A stretch of 11,741 nucleotides of DNA from a virus (taxonomy: Duplodnaviria; Heunggongvirae; Uroviricota; Caudoviricetes): the IMG/VR virus record IMGVR_UViG_2778261639_000023, positions 1 through 11,741 of that record. One strand, written 5' to 3'. Shown one piece after another: positions 1-11,741 of this stretch; within the stretch, counting starts at the first letter, position 1; every line of letters begins with the position of its first letter. A program made the position numbers and the translations under genes. The notes beneath the pieces were generated by a model. That model had not been told where the DNA came from. It was given only the letters and a program-made list of their open reading frames with translations, and searched no databases.

Positions 1-1158
1 ATGCTCACCGTTAAGCAGATTGAAGCAGCAAAGCCGAAAGAAAAACCATACCGCCTTCTCGATGGTAATGGCCTGTACCTTTATGTCCCTGTATCCGGGA
101 AAAAGGTATGGCAGCTTCGCTACAAGATTGACGGTAAGGAGAAAATCCTGACCGTCGGAAAATATCCACTTATGACTTTGCAGGAGGCAAGGGATAAGGC
201 ATGGGCTGCGAGGAAAGACATCTCGGCTGGCATCGATCCGGTAAAGGCGAAAAAGGCTTCGTCTAACAACAATTCCTTTAGTGCGATTTACAAAGAATGG
301 TACGAGCACAAGAAGCAAGTATGGTCAGTAGGGTATGCGACTGAACTTGCCAAAATGTTTGATGACGACATTTTACCCATCATCGGCGGTCTTGAGATTC
401 AGGATATTGAGCCGATGCAACTGCTGGAAGTAATCCGCAGGTTTGAAGATCGCGGTGCAATGGAGCGAGCCAACAAAGCCCGCAGAAGATGCGGCGAAGT
501 TTTCCGTTACGCTATTGTCACCGGAAGGGCTAAATACAACCCGGCACCTGACCTTGCAGACGCCATGAAGGGATACCGCAAGAAGAACTTCCCGTTTCTT
601 CCTGCAGACCAGATCCCGGCATTTAATAAAGCACTGGCAACATTTTCAGGAAGTATCGTATCGCTCATTGCCACCAAGGTTTTACGCTACACAGCCCTAA
701 GAACGAAAGAGCTTCGTTCCATGCAATGGAAGAACGTCGATTTTGAAAACAGGATTATCACCATCGACGCCAGTGTGATGAAAGGACGCAAAATTCATGT
801 GGTTCCTATGTCAGACCAGGTAGTTGAACTTCTCACTACGCTAAGCTCAATCACCAAACCAGTCTCAGAGTTTGTTTTTGCCGGGCGCAACGATAAGAAG
901 AAGCCAATCTGCGAGAACGCGGTATTGCTTGTGATCAAACAAATCGGCTATGAGGGTCTGGAAAGCGGTCACGGATTCAGGCATGAATTCAGCACGATTA
1001 TGAACGAGCACGAATGGCCTGCTGATGCTATTGAAGTGCAACTGGCACATGCCAACGGCGGATCTGTGCGCGGGATTTACAACCATGCTCAGTATCTCGA
1101 TAAGCGCAGAGAAATGATGCAGTGGTGGGCGGATTGGCTTGATGAGAAGGTGGAGTGA
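1..1158 (+). CDS. intS: Phage integrase, tyrosine recombinase (P4/IntS-type with N-terminal arm-binding domain)
   Basis: 385-aa ORF. N-terminus MLTVKQIEAAKP...YRLLDGNGLYLYV is the signature of the DUF4102 arm-binding domain of P4-family integrases. C-terminal catalytic region has HGFRHEF (HxxR) and a late Tyr (RGIYNHAQY). From memory it closely resembles E. coli K-12 CPS-53 IntS, which also sits beside a gtrABC-like operon; not verified by search. Confidence 0.93.
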   Translation: MLTVKQIEAAKPKEKPYRLLDGNGLYLYVPVSGKKVWQLRYKIDGKEKILTVGKYPLMTLQEARDKAWAARKDISAGIDPVKAKKASSNNNSFSAIYKEWYEHKKQVWSVGYATELAKMFDDDILPIIGGLEIQDIEPMQLLEVIRRFEDRGAMERANKARRRCGEVFRYAIVTGRAKYNPAPDLADAMKGYRKKNFPFLPADQIPAFNKALATFSGSIVSLIATKVLRYTALRTKELRSMQWKNVDFENRIITIDASVMKGRKIHVVPMSDQVVELLTTLSSITKPVSEFVFAGRNDKKKPICENAVLLVIKQIGYEGLESGHGFRHEFSTIMNEHEWPADAIEVQLAHANGGSVRGIYNHAQYLDKRREMMQWWADWLDEKVE

Positions 1159-1674: not shown

Positions 1675-2597
1675 AGATATCTCTTGTAGTTCCTGTCTTC
1701 AATGAAGAAGAAGCGATACCAATTTTTTATAAAACGGTACGTGAGTTCGAAGAGTTGAAGCCATATGAAGTGGAAATTGTTTTCATAAATGACGGAAGCA
1801 AAGACGCTACGGAGTCAATTATTAATGCTCTGGCTGTTTCAGACCCGCTGGTTGTTCCGCTGTCATTTACACGAAACTTTGGTAAAGAACCAGCATTGTT
1901 TGCAGGGCTAGACCATGCAACCGGAGATGCTGTAATTCCAATTGATGTTGACCTGCAAGATCCGATTGAGGTTATTCCCCACCTCATCGAAAAGTGGCAG
2001 GCAGGCTCTGATATGGTGCTGGCTAAGCGAACTGATCGCTCAACTGACGGACGACTGAAACGCAAAACGGCAGAGTGGTTTTATAAATTGCACAACAAAA
2101 TAAGCAACCCAAAGATCGAGGAGAATGTCGGCGATTTCCGGTTAATGAGCCGTGAAGTTGTCGAAAACATTAAGCTTATGCCAGAGCGCAACCTTTTTAT
2201 GAAAGGTGTGCTGAGTTGGGTTGGCGGTCGCACAGATGTTGTCGAGTATGCACGCGCAGAACGAGTGGCAGGCAGTACTAAATTTAATGGATGGAAACTG
2301 TGGAACCTGGCACTTGAGGGGATCACAAGCTTCTCTACTTTCCCGTTGCGCATGTGGACTTACATTGGCCTGTTCGTAGCTGGAGTTGCGTTCATGTACG
2401 GAGCGTGGATGATTGTCGATACGCTGGCATTTGGAAACGCAGTGCGTGGTTATCCATCCTTGCTGGTTTCCATCCTTTTCCTGGGTGGCATACAACTGAT
2501 TGGTATTGGCGTCCTAGGTGAATACATTGGAAGGATTTACATTGAAGTTAAAGGCAGACCAAGATATCTAATTAAGGCACGCAAGAATGAAAAATAA
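1671..2597 (+). CDS. gtrB: GtrB, bactoprenol glucosyltransferase (GT2 family)
   Basis: 308 aa. N-terminal GT2 signature ([12 protein letters not shown]...INDGSKD...DVDLQDP) and C-terminal TM helices, typical of GtrB/ArnC-like polyprenyl-phosphate glycosyltransferases. Translationally coupled to both neighbours. Confidence 0.93.
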
Positions 2598-3987
2598 ACT
2601 ACTTCACTGGTCTGTAGAAGGTTTGGCGGCCATTTTTATAGTCATTGCCTTTAGTTATTACTTTGGGTATGCCTTCACCAATCCAGATTCAGTTATTTAC
2701 AAGATAATTGCTGATGGAATAGTCAAGCACGGAGATCTTCCATATACCTTCGCCTTCGATCATAAGCCAGCTTTTATTTTCTATACTTACGCACTATTTT
2801 CACTTATCTATCCATTTAAGGTAGGCTTTTTCGCTGCCTTTTCGCTTCTTTTTTATCTTTTTACGGGATCATTGATATCTAAGCTAGCGACAGGTAGTTT
2901 CAAGCATGCATTGAGCTCTTCTGCTGCGGTGCTGTTTTTCTATTTCCCATTTCTTGATTTTTCTGGCAATACCGAGATTGTGTATAACCTCTACGCAATA
3001 GCATCTCTTTGCCTGCTTTACTGCTATAGCGCAGGATCAATGTTATTGTTTTTTTCTGGGGTGCTGGCAATTTTTGCGGTAAACACTAACTATATGGCAG
3101 GCGTAATGCTTTCACTGCCAACAATATATTTATTAATGCGAGATGGACTGAGTCCAACTGCCAAAAGGGCTGCATGGTATGCATTAGGAGTGATTGCTGG
3201 ACTTGCTATTATCCTTTTACCTATTGCTATGCAGGGATCATTGATTAGTGGTTATTTCGAGCCGCAAATTCATTTCTTAACCTCATATAACGAATCATCG
3301 CCTGGTTTCAAAACAACACTTTATTATTACTTACCTGTTCTACTGAGCATTCTTATCGCTCCGGCTTGTGTATTATTTGGATGGGTAAAGCGGGACGTTC
3401 CTGCAAGAGGGTGGGTTGCATTTGTAATCACCACCATCTCTGCATCAATAACCCTTATCTTAACAGGTAAGGAGGGTATGCATTACGCAGCCATTTACTT
3501 TGCTCCTGTTGCAATGCTAGCCGTGGCTATGGGAAGAAACCCTGTACCCATAGTGCTGGCATGCTCAATACCATTTAACTTTTACTATGCAAAGAACACT
3601 GAATATCTGTTCGAGTTGCATAACCGAGTAGAGCTATCTTATACCAAAGCTAAGGCTGAGGAGTTTGCTGCGATGCATCAGCTTGTCGGTAATGAGAAAG
3701 TGATGTCAATAAGGGCTTCGCATGTCTTATTCTACCTGTCAGACATGATCCCTTTCCATCCTTACATTTGGAACGGCCATTCAAAACTTGTATTTGGTGA
3801 TAAAGAGAATGAGTATTTTATCAAACAGTTGGAATTATCTCCTAAGTTCGTTCTTACTGGCAATGGATACTGTGAGAAGGCTGATCGCATGATTGATGTT
3901 TGCGATATGATAAAACATCATTACACCAAAAAGATGAGCATTAGCTGGGCGTTCGGATACGGTGGTGATTTGTATCAGGCTAAGTAA
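2587..3987 (+). CDS. gtrC: Serotype-specific O-antigen glucosyltransferase (GtrC / Gtr-type, polytopic membrane protein)
   Basis: 466-aa highly hydrophobic multi-TM protein in third position of the gtr operon; start overlaps the gtrB stop by 11 nt. Strongly AT-rich (about 37% GC in hand-sampled lines), as expected for horizontally acquired type-specific gtr genes. Specificity cannot be inferred. Confidence 0.8.
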
Positions 3988-4014: not shown

Positions 4015-6231
4015 CTACACTTCCCACCATCCTTGTGCTCCTGACATCTTGATAAATGTTTTTGACCATCCATTTCCTGTTTTTGTTTCCGTGCCAACAC
4101 TTAGAGGCACTATTCTATTTTCGGATGCTGTACTGCTAAATATAAACGTAACACTAGAGGATAAAGATACTCCGCGTATCACCACTCTGTCTCCGGGCTT
4201 ACCTCCTGTGATTGTGTCAATGCTTTTAGTTGCGGACGATATCCATACATTGCCATGCGAGAATGGAAGTACTGATCCAGTCAATGACTCAAGGGGTTTT
4301 GATGGGCATGGCTCACCATAGATTTGTGGGTCGTTTACACCTGCTGGAATAAGCAGTGTGGAGTTATACTTATTACCTGATCCATAAAGAGTTGGCTCAG
4401 TTGCTCCGCTCCATGTAATAGGGTAATGAGCAACAGATTTCATAGTAAAATCGTTATCACGCAACCTTAAAATGCACGCCTGAGCATTGATATACGTTAA
4501 GGCACCGCTGTTTGCCATCGCGTCAAACCAGTTGCTTCTGAATGTGGCGTCAGCGTTGTTGAAAACAACAACCGGGTCGAGTTGAGATGCTGCTGATGAA
4601 CCCCAGAGATGCGCCTTGAAGGTGCAGTTTTGTACCTTCATTCCTTTGACACTTCCTATGCGCATGAACTGGAAGCAGTTTTTTAGAATAACGCCATCAA
4701 CAATAATTGCCCCATCAGAGAAGAATGAAGGGTTTATTGCTGGTTGGGCATGTAACCCACGAAATGCCGAGTCGATGTTACCGCCTAAAATATGAACCTT
4801 GCCCATATTACCGAAAATTCGGTAAGCAGTACTCAAGTCAACTTTAGTTGACTGCACCTCGCAGTTGATAAACATAAACGTGTGATCGAAGTTTGACCAT
4901 GAAGGTAGCGGGTCGCCAGTGGAGCCGTCTTTGTCGGTGGTAATAATCTGGACGCTGGAGTTAGCGTATACAGTGTCATCGCTGAACTTAATCTTCATGT
5001 TTTCGAAGATAACGTTCTGCGAATAACGCGTAATTCCACGGTCTCCAGAGTAGCAATAACAAGCTGACTTCGTGTTGTAGGCTGTGATGTTGAGAAAATA
5101 CGCGTTGTAGCATGATGCCACTCGCCACCATCCATCACAGGTAGACACGTTTTCTACATTAAACCGCTCGACATGAATATTGTAAGGATGCAAACCATTT
5201 GTCATGGTTGAGTTTGTTGCTGGGTTTTCCGGTGCCAGACCATACTCAAAGTTACATCCAAATTTCCAAGGCCCTCCACTTATCAGGCAGTCATGCAGTC
5301 TAATGCCATCTAATTCCCCCATTCCGCAAACAACAAACCCATTGTTTAAACCTTTCCCTGTAACATTATAAATTCTGTCAATCTCAACGTCACTGGTCAT
5401 TGCACTTCCAAGATATTGACCACCAACCCAAATCATTACAGTTTGAGGCGCTGATGGATTGCTGGCGGTTGCATCTGCCCTTGTTTCTGCAACGTCATAT
5501 ACAAAGTTGGATATGCGGACTTTTTTTGAATTGTAAACGACGAAAGTATGGTTCGCGCGACCACCTGATGTAGGAATAAACCCTTGGACGTTATCCATTA
5601 TCTTCGCGCCATTGAAGTTCAGCGTGATATTACTGACTCCAATGCATTGCACGGTGCCGGTAAGGAGATACGTACTGGATGGATTGCCAATAAACTCCAC
5701 ACCCACGCCGCTGTAGGTGGTGATGGCGGTGTTTAGCGCTGCAGAGCTATCAAGAACACCCGACTTATCTACGCCCGGCAGATCGTCGATAAACATGAAT
5801 ACACGATCAAGGTATTGCGTGAGATTAACGCCGCCCTTGGTACCAATCAGGTTTGTTCCTGGAGGGTCAAATGAAGCTAATTGCTGACTGAACTGATCAG
5901 GATCATACTTCAGCACATTAGGGAAATAGAATTGCCGCGCCCCATACGCATCATAAACAGCCATAGAATGGCCTTGCTCAGTTACGAACTTGGTAATCTG
6001 TCCATTATATACAGGGTAACCAGCAGCGTTAATGATGATTGGTTGCGAAACAGGAACGTGAGAGCCGTCTTCGTTTTCCACATAAACCTGAATCTGGTTT
6101 TCAGGATTTACCGGGTCAGTGTCAATTTTACCGATATAAATTTTGCCATTGGCTACGGCTTTAAAAGAACGAGCCATAGTGAAGAGTTGCGAAGGCATGC
6201 TGACCACAACATTGGCGGTGATATCTGACAT
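4015..6231 (-). CDS. Tailspike protein (P22 gp9-type N-terminal head-binding domain plus divergent beta-helix receptor-binding/enzymatic domain)
   Basis: N-terminus [59 protein letters not shown] closely matches the P22 tailspike N-terminus as recalled ([59 protein letters not shown]). Start moved from the track's 6279 to the ATG at 6229-6231, which has a GGAG Shine-Dalgarno 8 nt upstream and aligns with the P22 start. 738 aa. Confidence 0.9.
5890..6231 (-). other. Tailspike N-terminal capsid/head-binding domain (conserved module, about residues 1-114)
   Basis: Conservation with the P22 head-binding domain continues through ...[10 protein letters not shown]...[10 protein letters not shown], then similarity to P22 is lost. 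Boundary is approximate. Confidence 0.75.
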
Positions 6232-6352
6232 TTCATTGCTCCAGACGAATGATATGATGCAACCATGATGTGATTGCATACCGAAATGGTACTATTGAGT
6301 ATTTATCCAGTAGGTTACGATGCCATTCCACCCAACTGGTGAGGCATCAAGG
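6232..6352. promoter_or_regulatory. Divergent control region between tailspike (-) and mnt (+); candidate promoters and operator-like inverted repeats
   Basis: 121-bp gap. Inverted repeat TGCAA-N11-TTGCA (about 6259-6279) and ATGATG direct repeats one helical turn apart (6254-6259, 6265-6270) on the tailspike side; CACC-N5-GGTG inverted repeat (about 6329-6342) overlapping the mnt RBS (GAGG 6342-6345). -10-like TATCAT on the minus strand about 20 nt upstream of the tailspike ATG; possible TTGAGT/TACGAT pair for mnt. Functional sites are unproven. Confidence 0.45.
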
Positions 6353-6619
6353 ATGTACAGCAAATACGACGAGGCGCAGTTTCACTTGAGACTTCCGCAT
6401 GAACTCCACGCGAAAATTAAACAGCGTGCGAAGATGAATAACAGGTCGCTGAACTCAGAGATAATTGCAGCGATTGAAGAATCGTTGGCTAAACAAAGCT
6501 CTGCATCCGTTTACATTGACGATGCAGAGCGTATGGCAGAACAACAATCTGATATGGTTAAGAAAATGGTTTTTGAAACGCTTAAGACCATGTATAGCAA
6601 TAATAAAAAGGAAACATAG
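6353..6619 (+). CDS. mnt: Mnt-like ribbon-helix-helix repressor (immI region)
   Basis: 88 aa from the ATG at 6353 (GAGG SD 7 nt upstream; the track's extra 11 N-terminal codons are unlikely). Aligns along its length with P22 Mnt as recalled: RHH region ...QFHLRLPHELHAKIKQRAKMNNRSLNSEIIAAIEESL and C-terminal tetramerisation region DAERMAEQQSDMVKKMVFETLK (P22: DAERLADEQSELVKKMVFDTLK). Confidence 0.85.
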   Translation: MYSKYDEAQFHLRLPHELHAKIKQRAKMNNRSLNSEIIAAIEESLAKQSSASVYIDDAERMAEQQSDMVKKMVFETLKTMYSNNKKET

Positions 6620-6689
6620 AAATCTAGTTTCCGGCTAAAATGGCATTGCCTTCATGATATCCTGTGAAAAACTAAGGAGAGTTAACCAT

Positions 6690-7175
6690 ATGAAAAAATC
6701 ACTGTTAATTATCCCGCTTCTGCTGGTTGGATGCGCAAAAGTAAGTGACTATCAAGCAAGTTGCGAACAACGCTATCAAAAGCTTAGCGATATGGCTAAT
6801 TGCCTTGATGCTAGTGTGAAGAACGACTCACGCATGGCATCTGCACCAACACCTAAGCTGTATGTCCTTGCTGCAAAGATGCTCGGGCAAGGTGTTGATG
6901 AAGGTAAAATAAGTGACGCACAGGCAAGACTTGAGCTTCAAAATCTTTATGTTCAATTACAAAGCCAAGAAAAAGCCCAACAAATAGCGCAAAGCCAAGC
7001 ATTCCAGCAGGCTTTATTGAATTATCAGGCTGTAAACACAATGCAAGCGATCGAGCAAAAAGCGAGACAGCCTGTTATAACTCAACCCTATCCAACACGC
7101 GTTGACACTTACACAAACTGCAATTCAGGGTTTGGAAATACAGTCACATGCAACAGTAGCAGTAACATAAGATAA
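6690..7175 (+). CDS. Lipoprotein of unknown function (moron at the sieA-equivalent position); type II signal peptide, Gln-rich coiled-coil-like segment, Cys pairs
   Basis: Start at ATG 6690 with strong SD AAGGAGA (6675-6680); 161 aa. MKKSLLIIPLLLVGC has a lipobox (LVGC; Cys15 at 6732-6734) with Ala at +2, suggesting outer-membrane sorting. Mature part has Cys pairs (SCEQ...NCLD; TNCNSGFGNTVTCN) and a Q/A-rich heptad-like stretch (LQNLYVQLQSQEKAQQIAQSQAFQQALL). No family recognised. Confidence 0.75.
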   Translation: MKKSLLIIPLLLVGCAKVSDYQASCEQRYQKLSDMANCLDASVKNDSRMASAPTPKLYVLAAKMLGQGVDEGKISDAQARLELQNLYVQLQSQEKAQQIAQSQAFQQALLNYQAVNTMQAIEQKARQPVITQPYPTRVDTYTNCNSGFGNTVTCNSSSNIR

Positions 7176-7265
7176 CAATCAGCAAAGGTATCGCCTATGC
7201 AGAGGGGTACGATAAACCTAGCATTCTACATATTTGGTTTTTGCACGTTCCTGGTGTTTGAAAAG

Positions 7266-9263
7266 CTATTCTGACAACGCATCAGACTTAGCCCCCTGAG
7301 TCAGGGCGTTAATGGCCTTTTGTGCCTGCTGCATGGCTTTCTCGAACGCTGTTGATCCGCGTTGGGTGTTTGCCATTCGGAGCATTGCATTTCTGAATGG
7401 CTCGCTCTCATAGGCGCGAGTAAGAAGTCCATAGCTTACCGCTGCGCCAGTTGTCGCAGGGTTCATTGCTGTCCCATATCCGATAATGAACGGGATGGTT
7501 TGCTGCCCTGTTGGTGTTGTTACTGCCGCTTTTGCAGCCTGCTGCGTGGATTGCAGGTAGTTTTTCAATCCTTTCAGATAAGCGGCTTCCTGACCTTTAA
7601 ATGTGATGCCAGTCTGGTTTTGCAGGATGTTAAGCTGCCGAAGGAACTGGTCAGGGGATCCGCCAGATTTCTCCATCGCCTTTCCAATGATGCCATTGCG
7701 CATTTGCGCCCTGCCAACACGACCAACTGAGTTATACAGCGTCTTAATTTCAGATTTGTTCTTGCTGAATAGCATGTTGTTGACAACTTCCGGCGTCAGA
7801 TCGCCTTTCATGAGAACATTCTTCAGCCTGGTATTCTTGAGTTTCGCCGCTTCGTCAGCGTAGACGGCATTGGCCTGCTGATATTTACGGAGAGTATCGT
7901 TGCCAAGATTCTGACCAATGGCACCATTGATATCGTCGGTCATCGCCTTGTAAACGCGCTGAATGGCGGCATCGGAACGGTTTGGTAACACTGGTCGCTC
8001 ACCCTTCACGTCCATTCTGAACTGGCTGCGCAGATCGCTTAATTGCTTCAAGTCCAGATTTACCGGACCATCAGGACCAGCATTGCGAACAAGCTCATCA
8101 CGATATGACTGAAGTTTTGAAATAGTCTCGTTATCAGCGACCTTACCAAGCTTCTGCAGATTAGATATTTCTGTATCAATCTGCTGAATTGCTCGCGCAG
8201 GCTGAATGTTTACTCCAGCCATAGCATTCTGAACCTGCTCCAGTCGATTACCGGCGGCACGACGAATTCCTGATGTTTTCGCTTTAAGGCTGTCAATAAC
8301 AACCGCTGGATCATACTCACCGAATTTATCGGCAAATCTCTGCACCAGCTGGCTTCTCGCTTCCTGTTGCGTTGCTCTCATTCCGCTTGTGCCAGCCAGA
8401 GGGATATTTTCTGCTGTAGTCTGCGCCATTTTTCCGACGCGGGAAGTTGGTTGTAACAGGTCTGTGGTGTGCAGAGGAACTCCTTCACGCTCTGCAAATC
8501 TGATAGCCTGCTGCGCTTCTGGCGCGATAGCACCACGAACGCCACGATAAGCAGCACCTAATCCACGTCCGGCAGCGTTAATAGCACCGCCAGCAAGTAC
8601 ACCAACGCCTAAATCGGTGGCGAGTGCTTCCGCATCATCTTTCGCACTATTTGCAGCAAGTGATCCAACTGCGTTTTCTGCTAGAAGGCGAGTTGCCCCC
8701 TGAGCAATTCGACCAGCAAGTGTTGGTGCCTGTGTTGCCGCTCTCTCAACGCCAGCAGGAGTGAGGTAAGGCAATGCTTCAGCAAACACCCTGCCCTCTG
8801 TAGTTTGTGGAGTCAGCGCGCCTTGCTGAAGGCCAAAGTCCTGCTCTAATCCCTGCGTTGTTACTCGTGGCGATGGTTGATATGTACCATCGCCAATGCC
8901 GAGTTTACCGCCAGCCCAAGCCGCCGCGCTTGTTACAGCATCGGCAACTGATGCAGGTATGTTTGCCACGTTCACGCCAGCCTGCACCAGTCCGCGACCA
9001 GTCTCTTTTACTGCTTCGCCAAGATCAGACATAAATCCACTTTGCTGTGGTTGTTGCTGTGCTACTGGTTGCTGTGTCTCCACTTGCTGCACAGATAGCA
9101 ATGGATAGGCAGCATAGAAAGCTTTCTTAGCCTGCTCTGCATTTTCTCCGGCTTGCGGGGCCACGACTTCATTGAAGTATTGCTCCTGAGCCTGCGCTTT
9201 TTGTTCTGGTGCTAACGCCTGATACTGTGGAGAGGCGATAACATCTTTCCATGCTTTAGCCAT
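7266..9263 (-). CDS. Ejection (DNA-injection, E) protein, P22 gp16-like
   Basis: 665 aa, Ala/Gln/Gly-rich with low-complexity segments. Last gene of the minus-strand cluster, directly before the immI/tailspike region as gene 16 is in P22-like phages. Start ATG (9261-9263) overlaps the upstream gene's stop as TAATG. Assignment rests on size, synteny and composition, not verified alignment. Confidence 0.7.
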   Translation of the reverse strand: MAKAWKDVIASPQYQALAPEQKAQAQEQYFNEVVAPQAGENAEQAKKAFYAAYPLLSVQQVETQQPVAQQQPQQSGFMSDLGEAVKETGRGLVQAGVNVANIPASVADAVTSAAAWAGGKLGIGDGTYQPSPRVTTQGLEQDFGLQQGALTPQTTEGRVFAEALPYLTPAGVERAATQAPTLAGRIAQGATRLLAENAVGSLAANSAKDDAEALATDLGVGVLAGGAINAAGRGLGAAYRGVRGAIAPEAQQAIRFAEREGVPLHTTDLLQPTSRVGKMAQTTAENIPLAGTSGMRATQQEARSQLVQRFADKFGEYDPAVVIDSLKAKTSGIRRAAGNRLEQVQNAMAGVNIQPARAIQQIDTEISNLQKLGKVADNETISKLQSYRDELVRNAGPDGPVNLDLKQLSDLRSQFRMDVKGERPVLPNRSDAAIQRVYKAMTDDINGAIGQNLGNDTLRKYQQANAVYADEAAKLKNTRLKNVLMKGDLTPEVVNNMLFSKNKSEIKTLYNSVGRVGRAQMRNGIIGKAMEKSGGSPDQFLRQLNILQNQTGITFKGQEAAYLKGLKNYLQSTQQAAKAAVTTPTGQQTIPFIIGYGTAMNPATTGAAVSYGLLTRAYESEPFRNAMLRMANTQRGSTAFEKAMQQAQKAINALTQGAKSDALSE

Positions 9264-10696
9264 TAATCACCCCATAGTGAAGAAAAGTTACTGCTGGCTG
9301 CTGGCTGTGATACCTGTGTGGGTTGAGATTGCTGCCGCTGAGATTTACCAACATTAACGTTATATTGTTGGTTGTAATTGTTGGTGTATTCCTGAATCTC
9401 ACGAATCGACTGCTGCATAGCCTCCGGGCTTGAATAGTCAACCTGCGGCATCCCCTGAAAATACATCTTCGCTTCTGCTACGGTGTTAATACCACTGGCA
9501 CCCATGTCCCTTGCTGCCGCCACGCCCTGATTCTGCATTCTTCCCTGAATACGTTGTGCTGAGTTATATAACTGACGCTGATCTTTTCCTGTTAATCGGC
9601 TGCGAACATCAGCACCAATTGCCGGGTTACCTGCACCGCCGGTCATTCCTGTCATGAAATCGAGAGCAGAAGCGTCTGCATTTGCGATCGCGTCGATATC
9701 CTTCTTCATGGCATAGTTTTGTGCTGATGCAGACGATGTTGCAGGCGCTGCGATTGAACTGGCAGGAACGCGAACCATATTCCCCTCGTTGTCGATGCCT
9801 TCGTAGAACGCATTTGCCCCAGCGCCGTGAAGTTTCCCGCCAACCGTTACCGTTCTACCATCTGCCAGTTGCACAACATTCTCCCCGCCAGCATCAGGAC
9901 GGCCTCGAACACGAAGATATGTCTTTTGTTGCTCTGGAGACAGGCTGTTGAAATATTGATATTCTTTAACAGATGCAGGAACAGCACCTCCAGCAGTGCG
10001 CAGGGAGTTTTCACGGCTAACAGCAATGCTTTGCGCCTGTAAACCTTCCCCAGCTTTATTGCTGCGAATCGTCTCTGCCAACTCGCCACGCTCAATATCC
10101 CGACCAGCCATCTTGTCCTGAACATTGAAGTAATCAATCGGACCAAGCGCAGCCATCCCAAGATGATCAACAAATTCTGTGAAACCTTGTGGATTTTGCT
10201 GATACATTTTCGCCACATCCAGAGGGTCTACTCCGGCACGAGTAAGCTCAGATGAGTTGTTCTGCAACCATGACATCATGGCTTCTGGAGATGAAGCTGC
10301 GAGTCTGGCACTTGCTGCCAGTGTACCGACAGTGGAACGCTGGTCTTCATCGACAAATTTCATGCCGTTTCTTACAGCGTCAAACTGCTCAGGATACTGT
10401 GATGCCAGTTTTCGCATTGCATCGCGGTCGCCAGATGTATATGCATCAGCATAAGCCTGCTGAAACTCTTGCTGCCGCTTCTGCTGATCCATCTGCTTAT
10501 ACATATCCATGACAGATGAAATGCCCTGCAAAGCCTGCAAGCCAACGTTATTACGTCCTGAACGCTCCATCTCATTATTCTGTCGAATGTATGCAAGCGT
10601 GGCGTCTGCATCACTTGCTCTTGGAGCGTTGGAGTTCATGCCGCCTAACCCGGCAAGAAGCGCGCCTGAATTACCAGCCTGTTGCCATGTAGCCAA
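9263..10696 (-). CDS. Ejection (E) protein, P22 gp20-like
   Basis: 477 aa (P22 gp20 is of similar size), immediately upstream of and coupled to the gp16-like gene. Apparent TTG start at 10694-10696 with a strong GGAGG SD 6 nt upstream; an in-frame stop precludes a longer N-terminus. Confidence 0.7.
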
Positions 10697-10708
10697 GAGA
10701 CACCTCCA

Positions 10709-11032
10709 TTAAAACAGTGAACCAAGAAGGCCGACGCCAGCACCAATTGCTGTACCCCAACCAGGCATGATTGCAGTACCTGCAGCTGCACCTGCCGCAG
10801 CTCCACCCAAGGCGCTCTGAAATCCTGATGGTTTAACTCCGGATGGTTGGGTTATAGTGCCGAAGAAACTAACCGCTGAGAACGGCGCTAAGGGTGTGCT
10901 ATCCGGTGAATTTTCAGAAACGACGTTTATAAGCTGCCCGGAATGTTTTGGCGATGATGATTGCGATACCTGTGACGGTAGCGGGCGGATTGAAATTAAA
11001 GTACCAGTCACGTGGACGACCATAAAATCCAT
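10709..11032 (-). pseudogene. Possible 3' remnant of an ejection-protein gene (gp7-like) with C-terminal glycine-zipper segment; extent and intactness uncertain
   Basis: Stop TAA (10709-10711) sits 1 nt before the gp20-like SD, so the 3' end is in operon context. C-terminus ...ALGGAAAGAAAGTAIMPGWGTAIGAGVGLLGSLF looks like a membrane glycine zipper. N-terminal two-thirds is Ser/Pro-rich low complexity with no SD before either ATG (11032 or 11021), and 107 aa is far shorter than P22 gp7 (about 229 aa). It overlaps a plausible + strand ORF. Confidence 0.35.
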
Positions 11033-11093
11033 CTGGGATAAAGGTATTGCGTATTTTTCAGCAGAACCGAGGCAGGAGGTTAACCGTGGCTAA
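10857..11093 (+). CDS. Hypothetical small Cys-rich (zinc-finger-like) protein; conflicts with the minus-strand ORF 10709..11032
   Basis: 78-aa ORF containing CPEC-x5-CDTCDGSG (CxxC...CxxCxGxG, reminiscent of DnaJ-type zinc knuckles). Its end overlaps the start of the downstream ASCH-like gene by 8 nt, suggesting coupling. Weaknesses: GTG start and poor SD. Confidence 0.3.
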   Translation: MPKKLTAENGAKGVLSGEFSETTFISCPECFGDDDCDTCDGSGRIEIKVPVTWTTIKSIWDKGIAYFSAEPRQEVNRG

Positions 11094-11370
11094 CCTGCAA
11101 CTTGCAGTCAAAGGCGAATACTTCGATGCCATGATTCGCGGAGAGAAAACAGAAGAATATCGCCTGTGTAATGACTACTGGAATAAGCGCCTCGTTAACC
11201 GCGAGTATGGCAGTCTGATCATCACGAAGGGATATCCGAAGCGCGACGATTCCAGCCGCAGAATTGATGTTCCGTATGACGGATATGAAATCAAGACAAT
11301 CACACATCCGCACTTCGGTGATAAACCGGTAAAGGTGTTCGCGATAAAGGTGAATATCGGCAATGAATAA
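11086..11370 (+). CDS. ASCH/PUA-like domain protein (DUF3850-like)
   Basis: Start chosen at GTG 11086, preceded by a perfect AGGAGG (11074-11079) with 6-nt spacing; the track's TTG at 11047 has no SD. 94 aa. Motif ...KGEYFDAMIRGEKTEEYR...GSLIITKGY... fits the beta-barrel ASCH/DUF3850 pattern common in phage accessory regions. Confidence 0.65.
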   Translation: MANLQLAVKGEYFDAMIRGEKTEEYRLCNDYWNKRLVNREYGSLIITKGYPKRDDSSRRIDVPYDGYEIKTITHPHFGDKPVKVFAIKVNIGNE

Positions 11371-11374
11371 CAAT

Positions 11375-11429
11375 CCTCGCACTCGCGGGGATTTCTTTTA
11401 TCTGAACTCGCTACGGCGAGTTTTGTTTT
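11375..11429 (+). terminator. Two tandem hairpins downstream of the ASCH-like gene; the second is a good intrinsic terminator
   Basis: Hairpin 1: CCTCGC-actc-GCGGGG (11375-11390, one G-U pair) followed by ATTTCTTTT. Hairpin 2: ACTCGC-tacg-GCGAGT (11406-11421, 6-bp stem, 4-nt loop) followed by TTTGTTTT (11422-11429). Confidence 0.55.
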
Positions 11430-11441
11430 ATGGAGATGATT

Positions 11442-11741
11442 ATGGCCTGTTCAACATTCAACCCTCTAACGTTACAGAAATACCAGCCAGACCCTGAAGA
11501 TTTATGCTCACTGTGTGGCGGAAATCATGGTAAAGCCGCCATGATCGAATGTAAGGACAAAATCCACATATGCCTTAATTGCGTTGATGTCCTCGTTGAT
11601 ATCAAAAATGATAGAGAAGATAAAAAGCGTAGCGAGGCTGTTCGCGCCTTAGATTCATGGATGCGAGATGGGTATAGTGCCGCGCAAATTTATGACTTAG
11701 CAATATCAAAAGGCGAAATACCAGGAGTGCGCATCGAATAA
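11442..11741 (+). CDS. Hypothetical zinc-ribbon protein (CxxC-x16-CxxC)
   Basis: Start chosen at ATG 11442 (GGAG 11432-11435, 6-nt spacer); 99 aa. Contains CSLCGG...HICLNC, an N-terminal zinc-ribbon-like motif, followed by a charged helical C-terminal half. Ends exactly at the window edge with TAA. Family not recognised. Confidence 0.55.
   Translation: MACSTFNPLTLQKYQPDPEDLCSLCGGNHGKAAMIECKDKIHICLNCVDVLVDIKNDREDKKRSEAVRALDSWMRDGYSAAQIYDLAISKGEIPGVRIE

Follow-up and report, generated by a model that had tools for sequence, protein, structure and literature searches.

The segment lying between the gp20-type gene and the ASCH-domain gene of the window (the whole 11,741-nucleotide stretch analyzed herein) is very probably a deletion junction, arising from one internal event or from the sum of a few, in a P22-like prophage residing at tRNA-argW of E. 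coli. In the mechanism that we propose, recombination at a 2-nt TA microhomology would have fused gene 7 at codon 179 with an Ea22-like gene at codon 160/161, removing approximately 29 kb with the immunity, replication, lysis, packaging, head, and tail-hub genes as well as PL, the late promoter, and the Q antiterminator of the latter, so that two genes, each lacking its 5' part, now face each other head to head. A microhomology of this kind suggests illegitimate recombination, and we infer that the loss took place in a single deletion step; since both flanks keep their native orientations after a simple deletion, no inversion needs to be invoked. A preliminary description of this DNA had proposed that a rearrangement replaced the 5' part of gene 7 and the head and tail genes upstream of it with a plus-strand module. 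The loss was borne out by the analyses below and the replacement by an incoming module was not, as the plus-strand genes are the prophage's own early-left arm, now placed beside gene 7.

Junction mapping and the two truncated genes

When positions 9200–11741 of the window were searched by megablast against complete E. coli genomes and phages, the query split in two: the left part, up to position 10835, matched P22-like late operons, and the right part matched lambdoid prophages and 933W-type Stx phages in their early-left regions. A sensitive search with positions 10690–11110 as query revealed 10834–11110 to be 96–99% identical to the 3' end of genes annotated as 'ead/Ea22-like family protein' and then to the ASCH gene. 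In direct BLAST comparisons, window 10600–10835 was 99.6% identical to positions 7362–7597 of L002 (E. coli HCP5S3_I4), the late operon of which runs gp16-gp20-gp7-gp14-gp26-gp10, and window 10834–11189 was 96–99% identical to both L003 and L004. As seen in a three-way alignment of the window with L002 as the gp7 parent type and with L003 and L004 as the Ea22-like parent type, the two parental homologies overlapped only in the dinucleotide TA (T10834/A10835, a junction assigned to no strand), and a single breakpoint was visible between gp20 and ASCH. Of the deletion or insertion scar considered in the preliminary description, it was thus the deletion that was supported, with the gp7 homology ending at 10835 and the Ea22-like homology starting at 10834.

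Two other ways of placing the junction were tried and rejected. The near-repeat CC(T/G)GATGGTT (10824–10833 and 10839–10848) was dismissed as the crossover site because both copies survive, each from one parent, and the right-hand limit could not be taken as a mere boundary of an Ea22 mosaic module because the gp7 homology fixes the junction at 10834/10835.

Among 5,426 complete E. coli genomes, none covered at least 80% of positions 10690–11110, and exact searches for the junction returned nothing from the GTDB species-representative genomes (48-mer and 25-mer) or from the JGI metagenome contigs (25-mer). While the absence of the junction from all three collections would suit a chimera of assembly, the identical junction was present in all 10 contigs examined, which derive from six NCBI assemblies and four Logan read sets; its occurrence in 10 separate assemblies or sequencing runs thus leaves an assembly artefact with practically no probability.

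On the minus strand, the 107-codon ORF (10709–11032) ends with TAA at 10711–10709, followed by GGAGG (10707–10703) and the TTG start codon of gp20 (10696–10694), and the same arrangement of gp7 stop, gp20 Shine-Dalgarno (SD) sequence, and gp20 start was found in the intact relatives. This coupling had been noticed in the preliminary description, as had the lack of an SD sequence for the ORF itself, and both observations held: the minus-strand sequence upstream of its start codon, TTTATCCCAG-ATG, contains no purine-rich SD. The suspected short gp7-like 3' remnant before gp20 was likewise substantiated. Residues 67–107 were identical at 41 of 41 positions to residues 179–219 of a 219-aa gp7 (BLASTP), and the Pfam match to P22_gp7 (PF25688) was confined to residues 64–107, corresponding to profile positions 181–230 of 230; neither the profile of about 230 positions nor a homologue of 219–230 aa was matched over its full length. 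The remnant of gene 7 proper, consisting of the last 41 codons and the stop, occupies 10709–10835 on the minus strand. The ORF as a whole had no PHROG match, its residues 1–66 matched nothing in Pfam, in PHROG, or in BLASTP against gp7, and an NCBIfam search gave no match for the scar ORFs, the ASCH protein, the full-length Ea22-like protein, or gp7. Judged from the gp7 and Ea22-like breakpoints together with the reading frames, the 107-codon ORF is an accidental chimera of 66 antisense Ea22-like codons followed by 41 gp7 codons, and no intact gene.

The extreme C-terminus of P22 gp7 is a V-shaped two-helix hairpin belonging to an outer-membrane pore with gp20 (bioRxiv 10.64898/2026.09.03.749273). 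The 41 residues of the stub align to this pore hairpin region, but the N-terminal 178 residues of gp7 are gone, and therefore the stub is not a functional gp7.

The preliminary description had also considered the converse, namely that the minus strand encodes a complete small protein here, for instance one of ejection or the tail, and that the Cys-rich plus-strand ORF is spurious. The 107 open codons of the minus-strand ORF, its hydrophobic glycine-rich tail, its coupling to gp20, and its prediction as a gene by one caller on two Logan contigs are all in keeping with such a protein. On the other hand, the gene calls of the NCBI assemblies leave the scar interval empty, the SD is missing, the protein aligned with gp7 over its C-terminal residues only rather than end to end with a known protein, and residues 1–66 lie antisense to a coding sequence showing 98% protein identity to a conserved phage gene. 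Being refuted by the breakpoint mapping, this alternative was rejected as scarcely credible. Being a chimera, the ORF should not be labelled as a gene or as 'gp7' in annotation, despite the precomputed Pfam P22_gp7 match.

The opposite strand carries the Cys-rich ORF (10857–11093, plus strand), in which the zinc-knuckle-like motif reported previously was found again as CPECFGDDDCDTCDGSG. The plus-strand frame spanning 10836–11093, that is, 85 codons and the stop, was identical at 83 of 85 residues (98%) to residues 161–245 of a 245-aa Ea22-like protein (L004:4523–5260) in BLASTP. With respect to phrog_60, the remnant covered only positions 268–324, and the full-length relative covered 1–324; a full-length ead/Ea22-like match including the N-terminal region was thus not obtained for the remnant. 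The native start codon has been deleted, the first possible in-frame start is GTG at 10857, which has no upstream SD and so provides no start with a ribosome-binding site of its own, and an in-frame TGA stands upstream at 10818, inside the gp7 antisense sequence. The stop codon of the Ea22-like gene is overlapped by the ASCH gene in intact phages. From these alignments, the Cys-rich ORF is a real coding sequence, but as a 5'-truncated remnant of an Ea22-like gene and not as an intact gene, and annotation should mark these 78 aa as a pseudogene fragment.

The full-length Ea22-like genes of L003 and L004 diverge about 12 nt upstream of the deletion endpoint (window 10822–10836), and on this comparison the Cys-rich C-terminal part acts as a mosaic module that is exchanged on its own. 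Searches of Pfam, NCBIfam, and PDB sequences gave no match for this part; a phmmer search of PDB sequences with the 245-aa full-length relative likewise gave no match at E ≤ 1, so that no similarity to the solved C-terminal domain of lambda Ea22 was found.

No promoter-like (sigma-70-like) site was detected on either strand within 10400–11741. With PL and the late promoter deleted as well, neither the scar ORFs nor gp20 and gp16 are likely to be expressed, as judged solely from the absence of consensus signals. It appears very improbable that the chimera is expressed as a new small membrane protein, composed of a 66-residue antisense N-terminus and the glycine-rich, outer-membrane-inserting hairpin of gp7, or that gp20, gp16, and the gp7 stub are kept under selection, for example to disturb the injection channels that incoming P22-like phages form; the clonality of the carriers is too high for testing selection on these three.

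Lost interval, element boundaries, and carriers

In intact argW prophages, gp20 is followed by full-length gp7, gp14 (DUF2824), the tail needle, gp10, gp4, and coat. The prophage of EC6622 (L005) has a length of approximately 40 kb with repressor, replication, lysis, packaging, and head genes, and its order is torI, Ea22-like, PL, cI/cro, replication, nin, Q, lysis, terminase, portal, scaffold, coat, gp4, gp10, needle, gp14, gp7, gp20, gp16, mnt/arc/ant, tailspike, intS, and argW. In the orientation of the window, the order in intact relatives reads argW-intS-gtrABC-tailspike-mnt-gp16-gp20-gp7-gp14-gp26-gp10-gp4-coat...terminase-lysis on the left and Q-nin-replication-cro/cI-PL-early-left genes-Ea22-like-ASCH-...-torI-attR on the right. 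The junction-equivalent points in the Ea22-like gene and gp7 of EC6622 are about 29 kb apart, a value that stands as an estimate of the deletion size from a mosaic relative, as no direct ancestor with the same allele combination and an intact centre was found.

The lineage carrying the remnant was recovered by looking for proteins identical to the chimeric ORF product and to gp16, the latter being present in identical form on at least 20 contigs. The window was 100% identical to L016 (GCA_002510355.1), and the other overlapping contigs were at least 99.97% identical to it over the part covered; L011–L013 span all 11,741 bases, and L014, L015, L017, and L018 span a part. In L011, the order from the argW side is mlaA, yfdC, tRNA-Arg(CCT), intS, gtrABC, tailspike, mnt-like gene, lipoprotein gene, gp16, gp20, and the scar, and past the scar it continues with ASCH, the 99-aa ORF, torI, a DUF4942 fragment, the csc sucrose genes, and dsdA.

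The attachment sites, located outside the window, were identified in the same contig. The tRNA-Arg(CCT) gene lies at 19425–19499, and intS (18106–19263, equal to window 1–1158) adjoins argW/attL and is transcribed away from argW. At the opposite end, beside attR, stands the RDF gene torI (7214–7414), the 66-aa product of which is identical to RefSeq TorI WP_001163428.1 of L001. A 15-bp core, TGGTGTCCCCTGCAG, is present twice, once at the argW 3' end and once downstream of torI; both copies (7126 and 19425) are exact over the 15 bp, and the sixteenth base matches only at attL. The element between the att cores accordingly measures 12,314 bp (12.3 kb). Such an opposite placement of both genes is that of prophages in which attP lies between int and xis (PMC8787464).

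The complete gene list of L011 contains no repressor, replication, lysis, packaging, or head genes between the att cores. Only plus-strand genes follow the scar, as had been described, and this change of strand, which is all that the window itself offers in its favour, might be read as a plus-strand moron module inserted in an intact late operon, with the rest of gene 7, gp14, gp26, and gp10 further on. In L011–L015, however, the plus-strand genes run straight into torI, the att core, and host csc/dsdA DNA, with no gp14, gp26, gp10, or remaining gp7 past them; refuted by these flanks, an insertion of this kind merits almost no credence. Under the deletion favoured here, with the immunity, replication, lysis, packaging, head, and tail-hub genes gone, no phage would be made, and we take the element to be a defective (cryptic) prophage that cannot replicate, lyse the cell, or build particles. 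By means of its predicted IntS and TorI, it may still excise as KplE1 does. The torI gene is intact (66 aa) in L011–L015; in L016 (positions 1–109), it is broken about 30 nt into the gene by the terminus of an IS481-family element, at which the contig stops, so that the excisionase, too, has been lost in at least one strain of the lineage.

The host flanks of the carriers were as near-identical (at least 99.9%) as the remnant itself. Horizontal spread of the remnant between lineages was rejected on this ground, and the flanks point to one event in one clonal lineage followed by vertical inheritance. The argW-dsdCXA island is highly variable. In the carrier lineage, the csc genes stand in place of dsdC and dsdX, and the DUF4942 fragment (L011 6764–6946) lies between attR and these sucrose-utilisation genes.

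Remaining genes of the window and mosaicism of the right arm

The attL end of the window is occupied by intS (1–1158, plus strand), for which Pfam integrase domains are recorded on the identical protein and RefSeq gives 'prophage integrase IntS' in relatives. It is followed on the same strand by the retained lysogenic-conversion genes: gtrA (1312–1674; Pfam GtrA_DPMS_TM on the identical protein), gtrB (1671–2597; Pfam Glycos_transf_2 on the identical protein), and a gene of 466 aa in the serotype-specific gtrC position (2587–3987), taken from the ORF listing. This last protein is a multi-pass membrane protein with no recorded Pfam match, and the position is variable among relatives, where it holds glucosyltransferase-domain proteins, DUF6056, an acyltransferase, or an O-antigen polymerase. 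The P22-type tailspike (738 aa, minus strand, 4015–6231) bears the Pfam Head_binding domain on the identical protein; the start of its ORF as listed (4015–6279) is over-extended, the likeliest start being ATG at 6231 (MSDITANVV...).

An Arc/Mnt-like repressor gene (6320–6619, plus strand) and a lipoprotein-like ORF (6654–7175, plus strand) were recognized from the ORF listing and family searches. The latter, placed between the Mnt-like gene and gp16, encodes a signal peptide and an LLVGC lipobox (161 aa from an inner ATG) and matches phrog_6067 end to end, with no Pfam match. P22 carries sieA at the corresponding site, and the ORF may be a prophage-expressed moron or exclusion gene. The two ejection protein genes on the minus strand are intact and in the same order as in the intact relatives: gp16 (7266–9263, 665 aa), for which a match to PF26808 Phage_P22_gp16 is precomputed on the identical protein and relatives of which are annotated as lytic transglycosylase domain or DNA transfer protein, and gp20 (9263–10696, 477 aa), which matches PF16928 Inj_translocase with E = 1.5e-68.

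Beyond the scar, the ASCH-domain early-left gene is intact (11086–11370, plus strand, 94 aa; phrog_625 positions 1–93 of 98). Its likeliest start is GTG at 11086 behind AGGAGG, as opposed to TTG at 11047 of the mechanical ORF (11047–11370), because relatives are so annotated in RefSeq and the 94-aa product matches phrog_625 end to end. The last ORF, intact and Cys-rich with two CxxC pairs (11442–11741, plus strand, 99 aa; phrog_3680 positions 1–99 of 99), is an early-left ORF common to 933W-type Stx phages, for which NCBIfam gave only a sub-threshold match to the ClpX N-terminal zinc ribbon (E = 0.003). An exact look-up of its 103-aa reading found no entry, since the product called is the 99-aa version. 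Two terminator-like hairpins lie between ASCH and this ORF (11372–11423, plus strand), and a GC-rich hairpin with a T run was seen by eye just upstream of torI (L011 about 7460–7490, outside the window); these hairpins may keep transcripts from running on into the excisionase gene to some extent.

The right arm is mosaic, with the Ea22-like C-terminal module (10834–11110, 96–99% identical) resembling argW P22-like prophages and 11062–11741 being 96.3% identical to 933W-type Stx phages (933W L0063–L0065 region). This composition, and the observation that even the 906-bp right arm was not found in one piece in any complete E. coli genome, would fit a history of several events in place of one deletion, such as successive deletions, or recombination of two lambdoid prophages (tandem argW lysogens, or exchange with an Stx-type phage) followed by deletion. 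We regard such a history as unlikely, though deserving of some weight: mosaicism of this type is usual among intact lambdoid phages and needs no extra events, only the one breakpoint is visible, and the remaining genes of the remnant are all intact.

Comparison with known argW prophages

KplE1/CPS-53 of E. coli K-12 is a 10.2-kb defective prophage at argW, in which intS lies at one end and torI at the other and the core, CTGCAGGGGACACCAT, has 16 nt (PMC2951348). The element analyzed herein shares with it the argW site, intS by attL and torI by attR, the duplicated att core (15 of the 16 nt exact at both ends here), gtrA/gtrB (yfdG/yfdH)-type genes after intS, a size of about 10–12 kb, and the lack of repressor, replication, lysis, and head genes, so that the likeness to CPS-53 proposed in the preliminary description is sustained by the site, the intS-torI module, and the att cores, as well as by the missing packaging and head genes in L011. 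They differ in that the window remnant retains the P22-type tailspike, the Mnt-like repressor, gp16, gp20, and the gp7 stub and has a single clean junction, the deletion endpoints of the two being independent; K-12 KplE1/CPS-53 presumably keeps tfaS and yfdK–yfdT. The scar is a product of ordinary prophage decay of the K-12 CPS-53/KplE1 kind and raises no new biological question. Its value is that of a cleanly mapped case in which a P22-like prophage at argW decays into a KplE1-like remnant, a type that retains the integrase/RDF module and the O-antigen-modifying gtr genes and loses the genes for lytic growth.

Compared with the intact Lederbergvirus-type argW prophages of E. coli (such as those of EC6622, B7A, BUCT2930, and VTB97584v) and the phages HK620, Sf6, and Kapi1, the element was in good agreement in order and high identity over intS, gtr, tailspike, mnt, gp16, gp20, and the 3' end of gp7, and again over the Ea22-like 3' end, ASCH, and torI. 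In contrast, the intact prophages possess a centre of about 29 kb that is missing here, comprising the 5' end of gp7, gp14, gp26, gp10, gp4, coat, scaffold, and portal, together with terminase, lysis, Q, nin, replication, cro/cI, and PL genes.

A further counterpart is the argW remnant of E. coli FDAARGOS_1248 (L001), which is also a gutted P22-like prophage with intS, tailspike, gp16, gp20, ASCH, and torI and measures 10.8 kb between the att cores. Its junction (L001 11196–11305) is nevertheless independent: gp7 is intact, a 3' fragment of gp14 (DUF2824) abuts the ASCH start, and homology to the window begins at window position 11080, downstream of the ASCH AGGAGG. Furthermore, it has no Ea22-like remnant, and an O-antigen polymerase gene stands beside intS instead of gtrABC. 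Taken together, the scar in the window and the independent junction of FDAARGOS_1248 suggest that the gutting of P22-like prophages recurs at argW.
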